A stretch of 64,000 bases of DNA from a virus. The stretch covers positions 120,281 to 184,280 of IMG/VR virus record IMGVR_UViG_3300044960_000113. One strand, 5' to 3'. Below are positions 2,502 to 32,510 of the stretch, in pieces. The notes beneath the pieces are model-generated. The model did not search any database. It had not been told where the DNA came from and was given only the letters and a program-made list of their open reading frames with translations. How positions within the stretch are numbered: position 1 is the stretch's first letter; the number at the start of each line of letters is the position of its first letter. Position numbers and translations under genes: made by a program.

Positions 2502-3698
2502 TTATAACATGCAATTTTTTAATAATATAAATCCATTCCTACCACCGAATCCAAATGAATTTTTGAGAGCATATCTAATCTGTTTTTCTTTAGGTTTATG
2601 CATTACGAAATCTAGGTTAGCGTCTAATGGGTCGTTTAAGTTCATCGTATGTGGGATTAATGAATGTTTCATAGCCATAATAGTATATATTAATTCAACA
2701 ATGTTTGATGAATGAATACAATGTCCTATATGTCCTTTATTACTACTTATTGATACACCTGGAAAATATTTTTCCATTAAACTAGCTTCTATATCATCAC
2801 CAACTGGAGTAGATGTTGCATGTGCATTTATATAATCTATTTGTCCATTAAAATTTTTCAAACATCTTTCTAAAGCAATTCTTGAACTTTTCATTTCTTT
2901 ATCTGGTGCTGTTAAATTATTTCCATCATTTTGAAAACCTAAACCAATAATTTCTGCATAAATTTTAGCATTTCTTTTTTCAGCATGTTCTAATGTTTCT
3001 ATAATTAAACATGCATGTCCATTAGCAATCATAAAACCATCTCTATTTTTATCAAATGGTCTAGATATTTCTTTTTTAGATAATGCACCTAAATTTTCAA
3101 ACCATGTAATATCTAAATAGTTACAACCATTACTTGATGTTCCAACTATAGTACATTGAAGATTATTTTCACTCATTATCTTCAAAGCATAATCTATACT
3201 ATAAAAACCCGTTGAACATGCAGCAGATAATGTTAAAGACTGACCTGTTAAATTATATCTAGTTTGTATACAATTTGAAATAAAATCTGAACTATAATTT
3301 AATGCTATGAAAGGATTTAATCGCCCAAAGGTATTATTAATATAATCTAAATAATCTAATGCTATATTTCTTGTAGAAGAACTAAAAACAACTGGAACTT
3401 CTTTACCGTGAATATTTATGTTTGCATCTTTAATAGCATGTTCAACAACACCTAAAGCAATTTTAGAATTATTAGTTAATCTTCTTAACTCTTTTTCAGT
3501 ATATCCATATTTTGTTAAATCTGGAACTATTTGTTTTTCTAAAAAACAGAATTTTGTTTTTATGTTTTTATTTTTTAATGAGTCTATATTAGACGTGGAT
3601 GTTAAGTTTTGATTATTTGTAATAATATTATTAAAACATTCACTGGGATCAGATCCTAATGAATCATGGATACCAATACCTGTTATTACAAATCTCAT
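2502..3698 (-). CDS. fabF: beta-ketoacyl-ACP synthase (FabF/FabB family)
   Basis: Catalytic Cys in SAACSTG, His in NAHATST, KGHIGH, C-terminal NSFGFGGRN. Confidence 0.93.
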   Translation of the reverse strand: MRFVITGIGIHDSLGSDPSECFNNIITNNQNLTSTSNIDSLKNKNIKTKFCFLEKQIVPDLTKYGYTEKELRRLTNNSKIALGVVEHAIKDANINIHGKEVPVVFSSSTRNIALDYLDYINNTFGRLNPFIALNYSSDFISNCIQTRYNLTGQSLTLSAACSTGFYSIDYALKIMSENNLQCTIVGTSSNGCNYLDITWFENLGALSKKEISRPFDKNRDGFMIANGHACLIIETLEHAEKRNAKIYAEIIGLGFQNDGNNLTAPDKEMKSSRIALERCLKNFNGQIDYINAHATSTPVGDDIEASLMEKYFPGVSISSNKGHIGHCIHSSNIVELIYTIMAMKHSLIPHTMNLNDPLDANLDFVMHKPKEKQIRYALKNSFGFGGRNGFILLKNCML

Positions 3699-4072: not shown

Positions 4073-4474
4073 TTATTTATAATTAAATGTTGACCATAAA
4101 TCTTTATCTGTTTGTTTTGGTAATTCTTTTTTATTTGCTTTTGCTAATATCAATAATGCATTAAATACATCCTTAGGAAATCCATTTCTATTTCCTCTAT
4201 CATCAATAATTAATTTATTAAAATATGAATCTAATTCAATACTACCCCACGTAAGTTCAATTTTTTCAAAAATACGAGGATATTTATCCTTAATTAAATC
4301 AGCGGCATTAAATACTTCTTCTAAATCATTAGGTGGTTTTTTAAATAATGTCACTGGTTCAATAGGTGTTTCATCAGATGGAATAATTTCTGGAAATTCA
4401 GAAGTTGGTATTACCTCATTACCCCAAATAAACTCACCCTTTTTTTCAAATATCATATTATTATAGATCTCCAA
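4073..4474 (-). CDS. hypothetical protein with YPRI...WGS...DRGxRxGFP domain
   Basis: C-terminal motif resembles a small uncharacterised domain I recall mostly from Betaproteobacteria. Confidence 0.6.
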   Translation of the reverse strand: MEIYNNMIFEKKGEFIWGNEVIPTSEFPEIIPSDETPIEPVTLFKKPPNDLEEVFNAADLIKDKYPRIFEKIELTWGSIELDSYFNKLIIDDRGNRNGFPKDVFNALLILAKANKKELPKQTDKDLWSTFNYK

Positions 4475-4486
4475 TTATATATTATT

Positions 4487-4707
4487 ATTGATTAACCGAT
4501 AACCAGGATTCTGTCTAGGAGTATAATTTATCTATGCCACAACCCGATCTCATAGGATGGAACTTACCTCGATCTATTTGTGTTGCACACTCAATCTTTC
4601 GATTTATTAATGGTACAAACGACTATTAGTCTCCCATTAGTTCCAAGTGTGTCCTGAGTTTCCTCAACGGGTTTTAAAAACCCACCGCTATACTCTAGTT
4701 AATCAAT
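4487..4707 (-). ncRNA. rnpB: RNase P RNA, minimal bacterial-type (221 nt)
   Basis: CR-I GAGGAAACTCAGGAC (4665-4651), CR-V ACAGAATCCTGGTTA (4514-4500); P4 AAC[T]CAGGA/TCCTGGTT; P1 ATTGATTAACT/GGTTAATCAAT; P2 AGTATAG/TTATACT; P6 TGGAACT/AGTTCCA; GCAA-P15-AAATA...GGGT loop. Confidence 0.88.
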
Positions 4708-4714
4708 TCATTTG

Positions 4715-4787
4715 CTCCTCGGCCTGGGTTCGAACCAGGGACACACGGATTAACAGTCCGTCGCTCTACCAGCTGAGCTACCGAGGA
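4715..4787 (-). tRNA. trnN: tRNA-Asn(GTT), CCA not encoded
   Basis: Cloverleaf, ACGGA-CTGTTAA-TCCGT. Confidence 0.93.
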
Positions 4788-4791
4788 TCTT

Positions 4792-4867
4792 TGGTGCTGC
4801 CTGTCGGACTTGAACTGACAACCTACTGATTACAAATCAGTTGCTCTACCAATTGAGCTAAGGCAGC
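4792..4867 (-). tRNA. trnT: tRNA-Thr(TGT)
   Basis: Cloverleaf, ACTGA-TTTGTAA-TCAGT, CCA end. Confidence 0.95.
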
Positions 4868-4904: not shown

Positions 4905-4933
4905 ATTATATCATAGTTTTATTAAAAAGTAAA
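4905..4933 (-). promoter_or_regulatory. sigma70-like promoter TTTACT-N17-TATAAT for Thr-Asn-rnpB
   Basis: Same motif recurs at 12857-12885, 18508-18536, 21682-21710, 30975-31003. Confidence 0.7.
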
Positions 4934-5311: not shown

Positions 5312-7030
5312 TTATCCACATTTACTAGAACCACATTGCATACATTTATGACATCCTTCTTGATATACAACCTTTTCACTTCCACATTCTGTACATTTTG
5401 CACCTTCAACTATTTCACCATCTTTAATAAATGATGCTAGAAATTTTTTAATCTGGAAAATAAAACTTCCAACATAAACATCTTTAATGCTATCAAGTGT
5501 TGCAACAATATTTTTGATTAATACTCCATGTCTAAGATTTAAAGAAATCATTCTAGCAATTTTAGAAGCATTATCATTTGATTTAATTTTTTCTAACACT
5601 TTATCTATATGCTCTTGTTTAATATTTTTTCTTTTTGCTAATTCTGTCAATTTATCAATAGCATCTAATGTTATAACATTTTTTTCATGATGATTTGTAT
5701 GAACAAATAATGCAAATGGTCTAGTGCGTGTTTCATTCCAAACAACAGTTAGATACCATTTTCTTCCTTCAGCACGTAAAGTTTTCATTGATGCTTCTGC
5801 AGTTTCTGGAAGAATTACATCATCTAAAATAATTTCCTCATCATAACCATTTTTATCTGTTTCTTTTGAAGATAGTACAGCTGTCATTGTACCTGTTCTG
5901 TATGTTGTTACACCTTTAACATATCCAGATTTATAAACATCTAAATAAACATTTTTAAAATCATCAAATGGATATTCATGTGGAACATTGACAGTTTTTG
6001 ACATAGCACTGTCAACCCATCTTGCAAATCCAACTAAATCATTAACATGATCTTCAACAGTCAATCCATTCAATGCAGTAACAGCCCATGGTGCTTTTGG
6101 ATTCCATTCATTTTTTTCTTTTAAATATCTAACACCATAATCAGAACACGTAACCTCTTTAGTCAATCCTCTATTTTTATCGATTTTATAAACTATACCA
6201 TTATGTTTTCCTTTAAGAATTTCTTCATCACCTTCTTTTGTGAATTTAAAAATTTTTGTTTCATGCCACTCACCATCGTACCATTTAGGTGTTTCTTCAA
6301 TCATATCTTCTGGAATAGATGGAACAATAACCGTTCTTATATATTCTGGCATAAATATTGGTTCTAATCCACTAGATACAACATTTGCTAATATAGAAGT
6401 ATTTCCTGTTGGTTGTATCGATAATAATGAACTATTCCTAATTCCAACAGTTTTTAATTTTTCCATATATGATTTTGATAGACCTAATGATTGAATAAAT
6501 GGATTTTCAGAATGTTTTTGTGGGTCACATAATTTAAACATTCCTTTTTCTTCTGCTAAATCAATAGATGACATATATGCACTTCTAGCTATGGTAGACA
6601 TAACCTTTTCACGCAATTCATGTGATTTATCAGAACCAAATTTTATTTTCAACATAAATAATGATGATGCCCAACCAAGAATACCAATACCAATGCGACG
6701 CTTATTTTTCATTGAATATTCATATTCAGGAAGTGGTGCATTAGATAAAGTATTAACATTATCTAAGAAACGAACAAGATAACCTGTATATTTTGCTATT
6801 TTTTTATAATCAAAATCTGTACAATCTTCATTAATAAATTGAGTTAAATTTAATGAAGATAAACAACAAATACCACCTGGAGCCAACATTTGTTCACCAC
6901 AATTATGAACTAAAATTCCATTTGCAAAAAAATTATGATTTTTGGTAGTAGTTAAATCAAAAACATCTTGATTTTCAGTTATTTTTATAGATTTAATTTT
7001 TAATTTGCGGAGGTTGTTGTTTGTTTCCAT
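5312..7030 (-). CDS. nrdJ: class II ribonucleotide reductase, C-terminal part, preceded by split-intein IntC
   Basis: 43-aa IntC ending VHN, then CGEQ; PTGNTS, KGVTTYR; C-terminal Cys-rich tail. Confidence 0.9.
   Translation of the reverse strand: METNNNLRKLKIKSIKITENQDVFDLTTTKNHNFFANGILVHNCGEQMLAPGGICCLSSLNLTQFINEDCTDFDYKKIAKYTGYLVRFLDNVNTLSNAPLPEYEYSMKNKRRIGIGILGWASSLFMLKIKFGSDKSHELREKVMSTIARSAYMSSIDLAEEKGMFKLCDPQKHSENPFIQSLGLSKSYMEKLKTVGIRNSSLLSIQPTGNTSILANVVSSGLEPIFMPEYIRTVIVPSIPEDMIEETPKWYDGEWHETKIFKFTKEGDEEILKGKHNGIVYKIDKNRGLTKEVTCSDYGVRYLKEKNEWNPKAPWAVTALNGLTVEDHVNDLVGFARWVDSAMSKTVNVPHEYPFDDFKNVYLDVYKSGYVKGVTTYRTGTMTAVLSSKETDKNGYDEEIILDDVILPETAEASMKTLRAEGRKWYLTVVWNETRTRPFALFVHTNHHEKNVITLDAIDKLTELAKRKNIKQEHIDKVLEKIKSNDNASKIARMISLNLRHGVLIKNIVATLDSIKDVYVGSFIFQIKKFLASFIKDGEIVEGAKCTECGSEKVVYQEGCHKCMQCGSSKCG
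6902..7030 (-). other. split intein C-fragment (43 aa)
   Basis: VFDLTT...HNFFANGILVHN followed by Cys+1. Confidence 0.92.
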
Positions 7031-7145
7031 ATAGCTTTTTCCTTTTTGTAACTTTCACAATAATCATTAATGTTGTCAATTATAATAATTGGTATATCTT
7101 GTTCTTTTTTTAACATCTATGGAAGTTATAAACCTATGTGACATT

Positions 7146-8483
7146 TTAAATACCTATTAAAATATCGTCTGTTGTTAAGTCAGATGCATTAACATACCCA
7201 CGATTTTCAGTATAGACTTTATGATCTGGTGTTAATTTAATGACTGTAGAATCTTCTAATTCTAATTCGATAACATTAGCATTATTACGTGTTTTGTCGA
7301 CAAAAGTTATATCTTCAAATTCTGTATTTTGTGTGTCAATATTCATTGTTAATACTTTGAAGCTTTCACCAGATTTAAACCTTTTGGCCAACTCAAAAAA
7401 TGATATTTCACCCTTATCTGTCGTGACTAAAGTATCACCAGTTAAACATGGATTTGTCGAATAAATTGTTTCAGCATAATTTAATGGATTAAAATAATTT
7501 GCACGATCTAAAAATAAAACACCTGGCTCTGCGCGATTATATGTTGATTCCATAATTAAATTCCATAGCCAAGTTGCTGATACTGTTTGATACACTATTG
7601 TTGGATACCCAGCTGATTCCCATTGCTTAATGTCACCTTTCCATTCTTTTTTATATTTTGGATGACTTGTGTCTGGGAAACGTAAATTCCATTTATCAAT
7701 TTCTTCTTTTTCTTTAATTAAAATTTGTTTATTTTCATCATCATCTGATAATGAATCAATTTGTTTTTGTAATTCTAATGCTTTTATAACCTTTGACATA
7801 AATTCATCTGAACAATTTACTGACATATTAAATTTTGTCAATCTTCCTGATGATTGTTTTGCTGTAATAAATTCTATAATATCAGGGTGCCAAACATCTA
7901 ATACTGCCATCATCGCGCCCTTTCTAATTTTACCTTTCGCTTTTACATGTGTTGATTTTTTACCTGAACCAGAAGTAATAATATCAGATGATTTATCAAA
8001 TAATTCCATATATTTTACAGCACCTGGCGTTTCAACGCCAATCCCATAAATAAAAGCACCACGCGGTCTTATCCAACTAAAATTTTCTCCCCATCCACCC
8101 TCACTTTTGAGTGTTTGTGCTTGATCATTTAATGTTTTAATAATATTACTTAATGAGTCTATATCATTATTTGCTCTAGGTGCAACAAAGCAATTAATAA
8201 ATGTTGTACCTTTCCATTCTGTCCCAGCATTTGCATAAATTCTACCACCAGCAGTAACTTTAAATTCACTAAGCATATCATAAAATTTTTCGGTCCACTC
8301 GATACGCTTTTCTTCAGTTTCTTCTGCTGATGCTATTGTTTTTGCGACTCTAAAAAGAGTATCATCTATTGTTTTATCATTATAATCTTTGTATGTTGTT
8401 TGCCATATTTCTTCTGAAAATTGATCTTGAAATTTTGTTGAATATTTTTTTTGAAGTTTTTGTTTAAGTGTATTGAAATCCAT
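7146..8483 (-). CDS. nrdJ: class II ribonucleotide reductase, N-terminal part, ending in split-intein IntN
   Basis: AGGRI, NCFV, LRPRG-like and FNMSV motifs; STNP followed by CLTGDTLV. Confidence 0.9.
   Translation of the reverse strand: MDFNTLKQKLQKKYSTKFQDQFSEEIWQTTYKDYNDKTIDDTLFRVAKTIASAEETEEKRIEWTEKFYDMLSEFKVTAGGRIYANAGTEWKGTTFINCFVAPRANNDIDSLSNIIKTLNDQAQTLKSEGGWGENFSWIRPRGAFIYGIGVETPGAVKYMELFDKSSDIITSGSGKKSTHVKAKGKIRKGAMMAVLDVWHPDIIEFITAKQSSGRLTKFNMSVNCSDEFMSKVIKALELQKQIDSLSDDDENKQILIKEKEEIDKWNLRFPDTSHPKYKKEWKGDIKQWESAGYPTIVYQTVSATWLWNLIMESTYNRAEPGVLFLDRANYFNPLNYAETIYSTNPCLTGDTLVTTDKGEISFFELAKRFKSGESFKVLTMNIDTQNTEFEDITFVDKTRNNANVIELELEDSTVIKLTPDHKVYTENRGYVNASDLTTDDILIGI
7149..7448 (-). 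other. split intein N-fragment (100 aa)
   Basis: Block A CLTGDT, block B LTPDHKVYT. Confidence 0.92.
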
Positions 8484-8638: not shown

Positions 8639-9880
8639 CTATAAAACCACTGGACACTTCAACGAAGCAGCCAATGTCGTACCGACCACTGGACTTATGA
8701 CCTCTCTGTGTCTGTTCTCGACTGATTCGGCCGAGTTTAATTCTCTTGCACCTCTTTTAATCCAATTGACAAGATCTCTAGAGGCTTCTTGTTCGATGTT
8801 CTTAGCAGCATTCAAGTCTCGATCATGCACTACACCACAGACGGGACATGTCCAACGACGGGCATCAAGCGATTTTTTACCATCATGATGACCACAAGTA
8901 GAACAAATTTGACTAGAAGCAAAGTAGCGATCAACCTTGGCAAATTCCTTGCCATACCAATTTGCTTTGTACTCAATTTTAGATACCAATGAAGACCAAC
9001 TCGCATCCGCAATGTTCTTGTTTCGAGTCTTGTTCTTAGACTGCATCATACCTTGGATAGCTAGATCCTCAAGATAGATGTAGTCATAATTCTTGACAAG
9101 CCATTTAGAAAACTCATGTTGTAGGTGTTCTCGCTGATTAGAAATTTTCAAATATATGCGATTGACCTTCAACTGTTGCTGCTTGCGGCGATTGCTACCT
9201 TTTTGCTTCCGACTCAAATGCTGTTGTGCTCTTTTTAGTTTAGATTGGCTTTCTCTAAACCACCTTGGATTTGCTAGTTTGTGACCGTCACTGAGAACAG
9301 CCAAATCTTTCAACCCAAGATCAATACCTACAGCACGATAGGTATTTGGTAAAGGTTCTGGTTTTGCTTCTTCCACCAGAACGCTTACAAAATACTGGTT
9401 TGCTTTGTTTTTCGAAACTGTTACTGATTTGGGCGCTCCACGGAACTTTCGATCAACAACCATTTTCATTGGTGTCATTTTTGTGAGCTTGATTGTTCCA
9501 GCATTTAAATCAAACGCCTTCATTCCACCCAATGATGCCGCGGGAATTTTGAATGAATCTCGTGATTTACCTTTACGTTTGAACTTCATTCGCCCAAGTT
9601 TAACTGCTCGTTTCTTGTTGAAGAATTGCTTTTTGGTTTCATCAAAGTCCATTCGCTTTTGCTGAAGTGCATAGCTGATGGCTTCGTTCAACCAAGGATA
9701 TCTGGGATCATCTTTCAAGGTCTTTTCTGTGACCGTTTGGTTTGGTCCATCTTTAGACCAAGAATTGAAGTTAGCTACCAGTTGATTCCAGACAAAACGA
9801 ACTGCACCAAAGTTCTGCAACAAGAACTGCTCTTGTTCTTTGGTTGGATATAACCGATACTTGTATGCCATAAGAATCAT
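8639..9880 (-). mobile_element. tnpB: RNA-guided endonuclease TnpB (IS200/IS605-type, no transposase)
   Basis: YKYRLYPT HTH; RuvC GIDLG, LEDL, HDRDLNAA; CxxC...CxxC; higher GC than flanks. Confidence 0.93.
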
Positions 9881-11599: not shown

Positions 11600-11689
11600 T
11601 GGGGTGTATGGCCGGACTCGAACCGGCTATATCCTTTAGGAACTGTGTTTCACAGACACAGGGCGCGACCACTTTGCTCTTCATACACC
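11600..11689 (-). tRNA. trnH: tRNA-His(GTG) with G-1 and a long variable arm
   Basis: G-1:C73; CTGTGT-CTGTGAA-ACACAG; extra TCCT-AA-AGGA arm. Confidence 0.85.
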
Positions 11690-12134: not shown

Positions 12135-12224
12135 TGGCTGTCCAGGCAGGGATCGAACCTGCGTAAGTATCTCTACTCTCTCCGCTTAACAGGCGGGGCC
12201 GTTACCAACTCCGGTCACTGGACA
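12135..12224 (-). tRNA. trnN: tRNA-Asn(GTT) with a long variable arm
   Basis: CCCGC-CTGTTAA-GCGGA; AGTA-GAGA-TACT arm; G73. Confidence 0.82.
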
Positions 12225-17594: not shown

Positions 17595-17673
17595 TGGTGC
17601 AAGGTCCAGGAATCGAACCTGGTTTTACTGCTCTTCAGGCAGTCGCTGAAATCACCAGACTAGCTCACCTTGC
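17595..17673 (-). tRNA. trnF: tRNA-Phe(GAA), enlarged D loop
   Basis: ACTGC-CTGAAGA-GCAGT. Confidence 0.85.
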
Positions 17674-17794: not shown

Positions 17795-17874
17795 TGGTGG
17801 ACCTCCAGGGATTTGAACCCTGCTGAATATCCGCATTGCAAGTGCGGCGAACACCCCAAGCATTCCCGAAGCCC
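17795..17874 (-). tRNA. trnA: tRNA-Ala(TGC)
   Basis: G3:U70; CCGCA-CTTGCAA-TGCGG. Confidence 0.92.
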
Positions 17875-28082: not shown

Positions 28083-28157
28083 TGGTGGGCCCTCTCGGAT
28101 TTGAACCGACATATTTCGAATTATGAGTTCGGTATTTTATCATTAAATTGCAAACCC
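28083..28157 (-). tRNA. chimeric tRNA(CAT) whose 5' half lies inside the endonuclease ORF
   Basis: CCGAA-CTCATAA-TTCGA, T arm, CCA; weak acceptor GGGTTTG/AGGGCCC. Confidence 0.65.
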
Positions 28158-31887: not shown

Positions 31888-32199
31888 GTTTTTCCATCAA
31901 GCTACAATATTCGTCAATAATCTTTTTAGATTCGGTCAAAGAAACGTTAAAGGTTTTGTAATGTTTCAAAACAGCTTCAACTTTAAGACCAGCGTGAACA
32001 AGATCCTGCCAAGTATAGTCACTTTTCAAAAGTTCATCCTTAGCAGTATTATAAGCATGTTTAACAGCCTTAAACGTTTCGATATTCATCATCGCCTATG
32101 GTATATGGGTTAATATTGACATTATAACACAAAAATAAAGAAAAGTATATAAAATATTTATTTAATATTATTAATTTTTTTAATAAAGATAGTTAAAAT

Positions 32200-32510
32200 A
32201 AAATGCAAGCTGATTTGATGACAAGGACAGCTTGCGAAACCTCGTGGTGATTACGCTGCTAGGCGCATCTCTCCAAAATATTCATCATTTGCTGCATTTA
32301 TTTTAGTTTTGTCTTCTCAATAACGGCTTTAGACATTGCCGAGCGCCTTTTATTAGTACTAATCGTTACCACGTCGAAACCATATACCACCCCATATTAA
32401 AATTTTAATCTATTGGTGGAGTGGGCGGGAATCGAACCCGCGTCCGCAATAACTTTCCCTTATAAAAGGTTTACGCTGTTTTACTACATTTACACAAACG
32501 CCAATTTGTG
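32200..32510 (-). ncRNA. ssrA: two-piece (circularly permuted) tmRNA
   Basis: Acceptor piece ends GGGTTCGATTCCCGCCCACTCCACCA (32414); 20-nt spacer; coding piece starts GGGGTGG (32393) giving G3:U70; tag AANDEYFGEMRLAA* at 32295-32251; outer ends approximate. Confidence 0.92.

Follow-up and report, generated by a model that had tools for sequence, protein, structure and literature searches.

Bacterial type A RNase P RNA (RF00010), represented by the 377-nt M1 RNA of E. coli (rnpB), is ~350-400 nt long and joins a catalytic domain (C-domain) to a specificity domain (S-domain, P7-P14) that carries CR-II and CR-III and reads the T/D-loop elbow of the tRNA. The Rpm1-type RNase P RNAs of yeast mitochondria are AT-rich and strongly reduced; they keep P1, P4 and the conserved core strands, have lost much of the periphery of the C-domain as well, and need a dedicated protein, Rpm2. 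In the archaeal type T RNAs of Pyrobaculum and other Thermoproteaceae, which are ~200 nt long, the catalytic domain is kept and the S-domain is nearly gone (PMC3579882, PMC13462272); the first of these papers reports that most of the S-domain is missing. The remaining point of reference is an engineered one: when the C-domain of the E. coli RNA is used without the S-domain (Eco CP RPR), its efficiency depends on a P6-like pairing and P18 contributes nothing, since the role of P18 is to contact P8 (Mao et al. 2018, PMC5839562). As far as we found in the literature, RNase P RNA has been described only in cells and organelles; a search for a report of a phage-encoded RNase P RNA found none.

The window analysed here is a stretch of 64,000 nucleotides, the last 64 kb of a 184-kb IMG/VR record that CheckV puts at ~52% completeness, so that the complete phage should measure ~350 kb. 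Judged from its sequence, the minus-strand segment 4707-4487 of this window is a genuine, selected and reduced type A RNase P RNA carried by a phage. The first-pass annotation had proposed just such a molecule, a minimal phage RNase P RNA with most of the S-domain gone, and the proposal was borne out by a match to the bacterial type A model RF00010 (RNaseP_bact_a) at 4484-4706 on the minus strand (64.3 bits, E = 2.6e-19), which spans the full model from position 1 to position 367. Over the whole 184-kb record the same model gave an E-value of 1.9e-20 and no other match. The covariance search suggested at that stage as a check is therefore significant by E-value, though its score lies under the RF00010 gathering cut-off of 100 bits; Rfam applied at the gathering threshold reported no RNase P RNA in the window, and the RNA was detected by means of an E-value threshold instead. 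By gathering score it is thus no member of RF00010, because ~140 model positions belonging to the S-domain and P18 are deleted. Among the overlapping matches to models of clan CL00002, only the bacterial A model came out best, and an archaeal-type core did not. The conserved regions CR-I, CR-IV and CR-V, with the consensus sequences GAGGAAAGUCCGG, AGAUGAAU and ACAGAACCCGGCUUA, read GAGGAAACUCAGG, AGAUAAAU and ACAGAAUCCUGGUUA in the window, and those differences that fall within P4 are compensated. BLAST against GenBank phages returned no homologue of either the window RNA or one of its relatives (L002), the RNA being too short and too divergent for this method. The minimum free energy fold of the single sequence has a z-score of -1.68, to which we give no weight because the method cannot model pseudoknots.

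The whole catalytic domain is common to the window RNA and the bacterial type A RNAs. Measured from the 5' strand to the 3' strand of P1 (4707-4697 and 4497-4487; this and all following features of the RNA are on the minus strand), the molecule is exactly the 221 nt originally claimed for it, and each of the catalytic landmarks then named lies at the place it had been given. By hand assignment, P2 pairs 4695-4689 with 4525-4519, P3 occupies 4687-4665 and GAGGAAA is found at 4665-4659. P4, the long-range helix of the metal-binding core, is formed between 4660-4652 and 4508-4501 and comprises eight canonical pairs and a bulged U at 4657; its 5' strand, together with J3/4 (GAGGAAACUCAGGA, 4652-4665), has its partner at 4501-4508 and shows covariation in the family. 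P5 joins 4651-4647 to 4590-4586 and is followed by the GCAA of J5/15 (4586-4583). P6 is a pseudoknot in which GGAAC at 4644-4640, extendable to UGGAACU, pairs with GUUCC at 4563-4559, the latter strand being borne by L17 of the P15-P16-P17 arm (4538-4582). This P16/P17 arm and the P6 pseudoknot are specific to type A, and P15, P16 and P17 all covary in the family. The internal loop of P15 reads GGGUU (L15, 4545-4541) and includes the GGU for the tRNA 3'-CCA, which is invariant in a MAFFT alignment of the family (A1). The segment 4509-4537 comprises J15/2 with AGAUAAAU, the 3' strand of P2 and J2/4, with AGAU at 4533-4530 and ACAGAA at 4514-4509, and contains no P18. All 70 of the hand-assigned pairs are canonical, 57 of them nested and 13 in the pseudoknots P4 and P6. 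The P18 hairpin, with the GNRA loop that docks on P8, is absent, the P18 insert of the model being empty (0 nt) in the alignment; a hairpin persists at this position in some relatives.

Compared with bacterial type A, then, the phage RNA is shorter (221 nt against ~350-400 nt), lacks P8-P14 with CR-II, CR-III and the T-loop/elbow reader, lacks P18, adjoins tRNA genes and has no cognate rnpA in the record. Unlike the Rpm1-type organellar RNAs, it keeps the full bacterial C-domain. The resemblance to archaeal type T noticed in the first-pass annotation is apt as an analogy, the best model being that of bacterial type A. Type T RNAs work with archaeal proteins and have an archaeal-style core, whereas the phage RNA has the bacterial hallmarks L15 GGU and P16/P17/P6, and because it is bacterial in every diagnostic feature we regard the two reductions as convergent and not as shared ancestry.

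Relatives of the window RNA were collected from IMG/VR. A pattern search built on the 3' core strands (motifs of the AGAU/ACAGAA region) gave 47 stretches, in most of which GAGGAAA lies only 80-200 nt upstream as compared with ~262 nt in an RNase P RNA of bacterial size, and a second pattern added 9 loci. A covariance model made from the window RNA and its nested structure, with P4 and P6 left out, recognized 31 members at E <1e-5, namely the window RNA and 30 relatives on IMG/VR phage contigs, the closest of which is L061 (120 bits). As alignment A1 misplaced P1-P3, model-based alignments were used instead. In these, standard pairs filled 93.7% of the pair cells, against 35-41% when the 3' partners were slid by 1-3 columns, and the covariation score was 0.483 against ~0.05 in the slid controls; none of 500 shuffles attained the observed values. 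Since the nested helices are fitted to the model in the alignment, the independent tests provided by P4 and P6 matter most. P4, which the model does not contain, was found paired to 99.6% over 30 sequences, and two of its pairs change in a compensated way, one being G-C in 18 sequences, C-G in 9, U-A in 1 and U-G in 1 and the other A-U in 19, G-C in 8 and C-G in 1. P6, also unmodelled, recurs in ~24 sequences as a helix of 5-8 bp that the strand following P5 forms with the loop of P17, and more than ten compensated versions of it were seen, including UGGAACU/AGUUCCA in the window, UUAGAGU/ACUCUAA in L061 and the common CUGCUUA/UGAGCAG with its variants. RNAalifold, given a plain MAFFT alignment of ten members, recovered P4, P5, the stub stem described below and P17 de novo. 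CR-I, CR-IV, CR-V, the L15 GGU and GCAA vary little or not at all within the family, and a last P4 pair that is A-U and not G-C is a family signature. Members range in size from ~290 nt down to ~150 nt, with P6 kept throughout. On this comparison the phage family shows the same logic as the engineered C-domain, P6 being kept and covarying while P8 and P18 are lost together in the window copy.

In the model alignment the S-domain, P7-P14 with CR-II and CR-III, is deleted, which leaves in the window only a P7-like stub of 32 nt and a hairpin of 12 nt. Only two short hairpins had been claimed for this region; two are indeed present (4639-4608 and 4604-4593), but the first of them is a family-conserved stub with a near-invariant internal loop. 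The accompanying claim that P10-P12, P18 and P19 are absent holds in that P18 has zero nucleotides and P7-P14 are replaced, although P19 is not expected of type A anyway. The stub (4608-4639) stands at the P7 position and consists of an outer stem, S1, an inner hairpin, S2, and an internal loop, GA / GUUUGUA. We found this module in ~21 of 30 distinct family members and also in the two copies, from phage DLP6 and from Achromobacter, that are described below. S1 covaries at five of its six pairs, and S2, which is closed by G-C, at all four modelled pairs; the base pairs of S2 enclose from 0 to 85 nt. The internal loop is near-invariant in 20-21 sequences, with R-A on its 5' side, where the A is invariant, and seven nucleotides on its 3' side, G-N-U-N-R-N-A, where the last A is invariant. 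We could match the module to no known motif. A kink-turn reading of this loop was ruled out, the penultimate base of the 3' strand being variable and not G; its U..A spacing makes it possible that the loop is T-loop-like. Such conservation indicates that the first hairpin is a conserved stub and not debris. The second hairpin, H2 (AAUC-GAAA-GAUU, 4593-4604), separates the stub from the 3' strand of P5 and has a canonical stem of 4 bp and a GNRA loop; it is lineage-specific, a CGAAAG remnant being present only in L061 and L012. The laboratory Eco CP RPR (Mao et al. 2018; PMC5839562) is likewise a catalytic domain without an S-domain, but as a construct it has no history in nature, and it lacks both the conserved P7-like stub of the phage RNA, with its structured internal loop, and the GAAA hairpin found in the window copy. 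The stub is a new module, a compact and conserved RNA element.

The smallest members of the family (L006:9729-9875, L020:8982-9135 and L046:1548-1703; ~147-160 nt) have no stub at all, and their P5 is closed by the P6-forming loop. Another route of reduction was observed on AT-rich viral contigs (L021:679-885, L034:4916-5238 and L027:7596-7949), in which P15-P17 are collapsed to a short GGU-bearing P15 hairpin and parts of the S-domain are kept (a P8-like hairpin, ACAGAGACGAG).

The carrier of the window RNA is a T4-like jumbo phage of ~350 kb. The window DNA has 25-32% GC and encodes a UvsX-like recombinase, a gp32-like SSB, a replicative helicase, a DNA ligase and a CCA-adding enzyme; by UvsX, the nearest cultured relative is the Ralstonia jumbo phage RsoM2USA (55% identity), followed by RaK2-like jumbo phages. 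We note three further loci on the minus strand of the window. A FabF/FabB-like beta-ketoacyl synthase is encoded at 2502-3698. The large subunit of ribonucleotide reductase (RNR) is divided between two ORFs (5312-8483), of which that at 7146-8483 holds the N-terminal half with the N-part of an intein at its end, and that at 5312-7030 begins with the C-part of the intein, followed by the remainder of the barrel and a TSCPD domain; the intein could be split or disrupted. A TnpB / IS605 OrfB-like protein (OrfB_IS605, Cas12f1-like TNB and HTH domains) is encoded at 8639-9880, between the RNR genes and the tRNA region.

ARAGORN found 27 tRNAs in the window, all on the minus strand, and Rfam at its curated thresholds found 22 together with a permuted tmRNA. 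Seven of the ARAGORN tRNAs were missed by the Rfam gathering score and two of the Rfam tRNAs by ARAGORN; inserts, introns or degeneration are possible. Over-long tRNA genes were observed for His (89 nt, 11600-11688), Asn (90 nt, 12135-12224), Phe (79 nt, 17595-17673) and Ala (80 nt, 17795-17874), and possibly irregular tRNA loci also at 20808-20883 and 28086-28157. The permuted (two-piece) tmRNA is located at 32160-32506 on the minus strand (RF04321, 92.7 bits; ARAGORN tag peptide AANDEYFGEMRLAA), and maturation of its tRNA-like 5' end would in turn call for RNase P. Typically, permuted tmRNAs occur in alpha-proteobacteria, some beta-proteobacteria and cyanobacteria, and this one may hint at the host. 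CCA is encoded by 25 of the 27 phage tRNA genes and U stands at -1 in 21 of the 27, while tRNA-His has G at -1; to judge by these features, the tRNAs of the window look like standard substrates of bacterial RNase P.

Read in the transcribed direction, the tRNA region closes with the ribozyme, its final RNA gene. tRNA-Thr and tRNA-Asn do lie directly upstream on the same strand, as had been described. tRNA-Thr(UGU), with CCA encoded (4792-4867), is the first gene of a presumed tRNA-tRNA-ribozyme transcript, and tRNA-Asn(GUU), with CCA not encoded (4714-4787), has a 3' trailer that runs into P1 of the ribozyme, with 7 nt between. The sigma70-like promoter also claimed for this transcript exists as a weak promoter-like site upstream of tRNA-Thr (TTTACT, 17 nt, TG-TATAAT; 4905-4933, minus strand; 10/12 consensus), but such sites occur at chance frequency, 11 being found where 10.4 are expected in shuffled sequence of this 27% GC DNA, and the match is therefore without statistical weight. 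The promoter scan was thus uninformative in AT-rich DNA, and a scan for a terminator after the RNA found none; because the promoter matches are at chance level and no terminator was found, we can only infer that tRNA-Thr, tRNA-Asn and the ribozyme are co-transcribed. The CCA-adding enzyme (tRNA nucleotidyltransferase; 22921-23997, minus strand; phrog_2244, E 4e-97) that the ribozyme was thought to complement is indeed encoded in the window, but, with CCA encoded by 25 of 27 genes, it is needed de novo for two tRNAs only. These include the tRNA-Asn at the ribozyme, which would need 3' cleavage and then CCA addition by the phage enzyme.

The association with tRNA genes extends to the family. tRNA genes are present at 23 of the 31 loci, on the strand of the ribozyme except for a single tRNA at each of two loci; at ~16 loci a tRNA lies no more than ~15 nt from the ribozyme, and at 13 a tRNA starts no more than 4 nt downstream of it, so that RNase P cleavage there would also make the 3' end of the ribozyme. 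In the cultured Stenotrophomonas phage DLP6 (host S. maltophilia D1571) we found an unannotated copy at KU682439.2 105770-106022 (L066:1505-1753), scoring 57.5 bits with the family model and 54.7 bits with RF00010. It sits in a 258-nt annotation gap that extends from a hypothetical CDS to tRNA-Arg, ends 3 nt before tRNA-Arg, retains a P18-like hairpin and has two further compensated P4 pairs. A scan of prokaryotes with a mid-size pattern, using one genome per species, yielded 52 stretches, roughly as many as chance would produce, and only two of them are real. One of these two, from the cultured Achromobacter anxifer LMG 26857 (NZ_CAHLAR010000005.1, L112:6076-6299; 224 nt, 64% GC; RF00010, 82.7 bits), lies on a bacterial chromosome contig amid 32 arrayed tRNA genes that span no more than 8 kb. 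The family is widespread among phages, and the reduced RNA thus accompanies mobile tRNA arrays, most of which are carried by phages. With the family model, five cultured jumbo phages picked by UvsX similarity (RsoM2USA, Xoo-sp13, Munch, RaK2 and RAS14) gave only noise, which marks the RNA as an accessory gene, dispensable for such phages. Two of the IMG/VR contigs with one family member each (54 bits) are 344,634 and 348,222 bp long at ~48% completeness (L060 and L063), and their carriers may be phages of ~700 kb.

No match to RnpA (PF00825) was obtained in the 184-kb record (~52% complete) or in the genomes of five further carriers, including two complete ones, DLP6 and a 183.6-kb genome with terminal repeats; the carriers most likely borrow the RnpA of the host, although the missing half of the window phage could still hold an rnpA. 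Nor was a shared neighbouring protein cofactor found, the ORFs that flank the window RNA, including an acidic 127-aa ORF at 4073-4456, having no relatives in the other carrier loci.

We propose that the window RNA is probably an active, trans-acting type A ribozyme that matures the 5' ends of the phage tRNAs with the help of a host protein. It would be transcribed together with tRNA-Thr and tRNA-Asn, and its 5' end would be freed through the 3' processing of tRNA-Asn. Covariation in the family argues that it would fold via P1-P5, P15-P17 and the P4 and P6 pseudoknots, and the conserved residues suggest that the L15 GGU would bind the 3'-CCA of the pre-tRNA and the adenosines of J5/15 position -1. 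The 5' leaders of at least 27 phage tRNAs, and probably that of the two-piece tmRNA too, would then be cleaved with host RnpA, which we suggest as the partner because no RnpA was found to be encoded in the phage record. Such an RNA would be able to do without the S-domain and P18, since the C-domain by itself supports catalysis as long as P6 is intact. It counts against this proposal that the elbows of the phage tRNAs look canonical and present no obvious need for an enzyme that lacks the S-domain. The Rfam score under the cut-off, the chance-level promoter match, the missing terminator and the lack of the RNA in five cultured relatives also weigh against it. Possible reasons for a phage to need an RNase P RNA of its own are processing capacity for a large array, independence from the turnover of the host RNA, or relaxed specificity.

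Another explanation, which we consider unlikely, is that the range of substrates has changed and that the RNA, not measuring the elbow, acts mainly on the permuted tmRNA precursor, on long or odd tRNAs, or on tRNA-like punctuation in polycistronic mRNAs. The window does contain a permuted tmRNA and several over-long tRNAs that the Rfam tRNA gathering score misses, and the conserved stub differs from the canonical T-loop reader. However, most of the phage tRNAs are canonical (50-72 bits with Rfam tRNA), with CCA and U at -1, and family members that have no tmRNA nearby sit in ordinary tRNA arrays. Slightly more doubtful is the idea that the RNA is a decoy or sponge and not a working enzyme, whose surfaces for protein and substrate, kept from RNase P RNA, would soak up host RnpA, or pre-tRNA, so that the maturation of host tRNAs would be halted or redirected. 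With no rnpA found in six carrier genomes the RNA has to contend for the protein of the host, and the gain in substrate affinity and fidelity that an S-domain brings has been lost, both of which would suit a sponge; yet residues that serve the chemistry and not the binding of protein are kept throughout the family (the bulged U of P4 and its A-rich J3/4, ACAGAA, the L15 GGU and P6), the 27 tRNA genes of the phage themselves need RNase P, and at 13 loci the RNA forms the 5' leader of a tRNA, from which RNase P cleavage would release it. That the RNA is a decaying relic of a captured host rnpB, or a structural spacer that stabilizes the tRNA transcript, with no RNase P function, is scarcely credible, for although its Rfam score is under threshold, its deletions are large and close cultured relatives do not have it, the deletions affect only peripheral elements, every core motif is intact and this reading is largely refuted by the strong purifying and compensatory evolution of 31 divergent copies, pseudoknots included.

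Returning to the RNA as a working ribozyme, we are inclined to a wider interpretation in which large phages, and mobile tRNA arrays too, come with an RNase P ribozyme of their own. This would make it the first RNase P RNA from a virus and a bacterial-type enzyme that naturally does without the elbow-reading domain, hijacking the RnpA of the host for a private pool of tRNAs and possibly for the two-piece tmRNA, with the stub as a minimal substitute for the S-domain. The Rfam threshold misses every one of these RNAs, which constitutes a gap in annotation, and cultured carriers are at hand in DLP6 with S. maltophilia D1571 and in the Achromobacter strain. The family provides a natural experiment on the minimal bacterial RNase P RNA, and it agrees with the biochemistry of the engineered C-domain. 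A phage-borne RNase P RNA of half the usual size would join tRNAs, tmRNA and the CCA-adding enzyme among the translation-related genes of phages.
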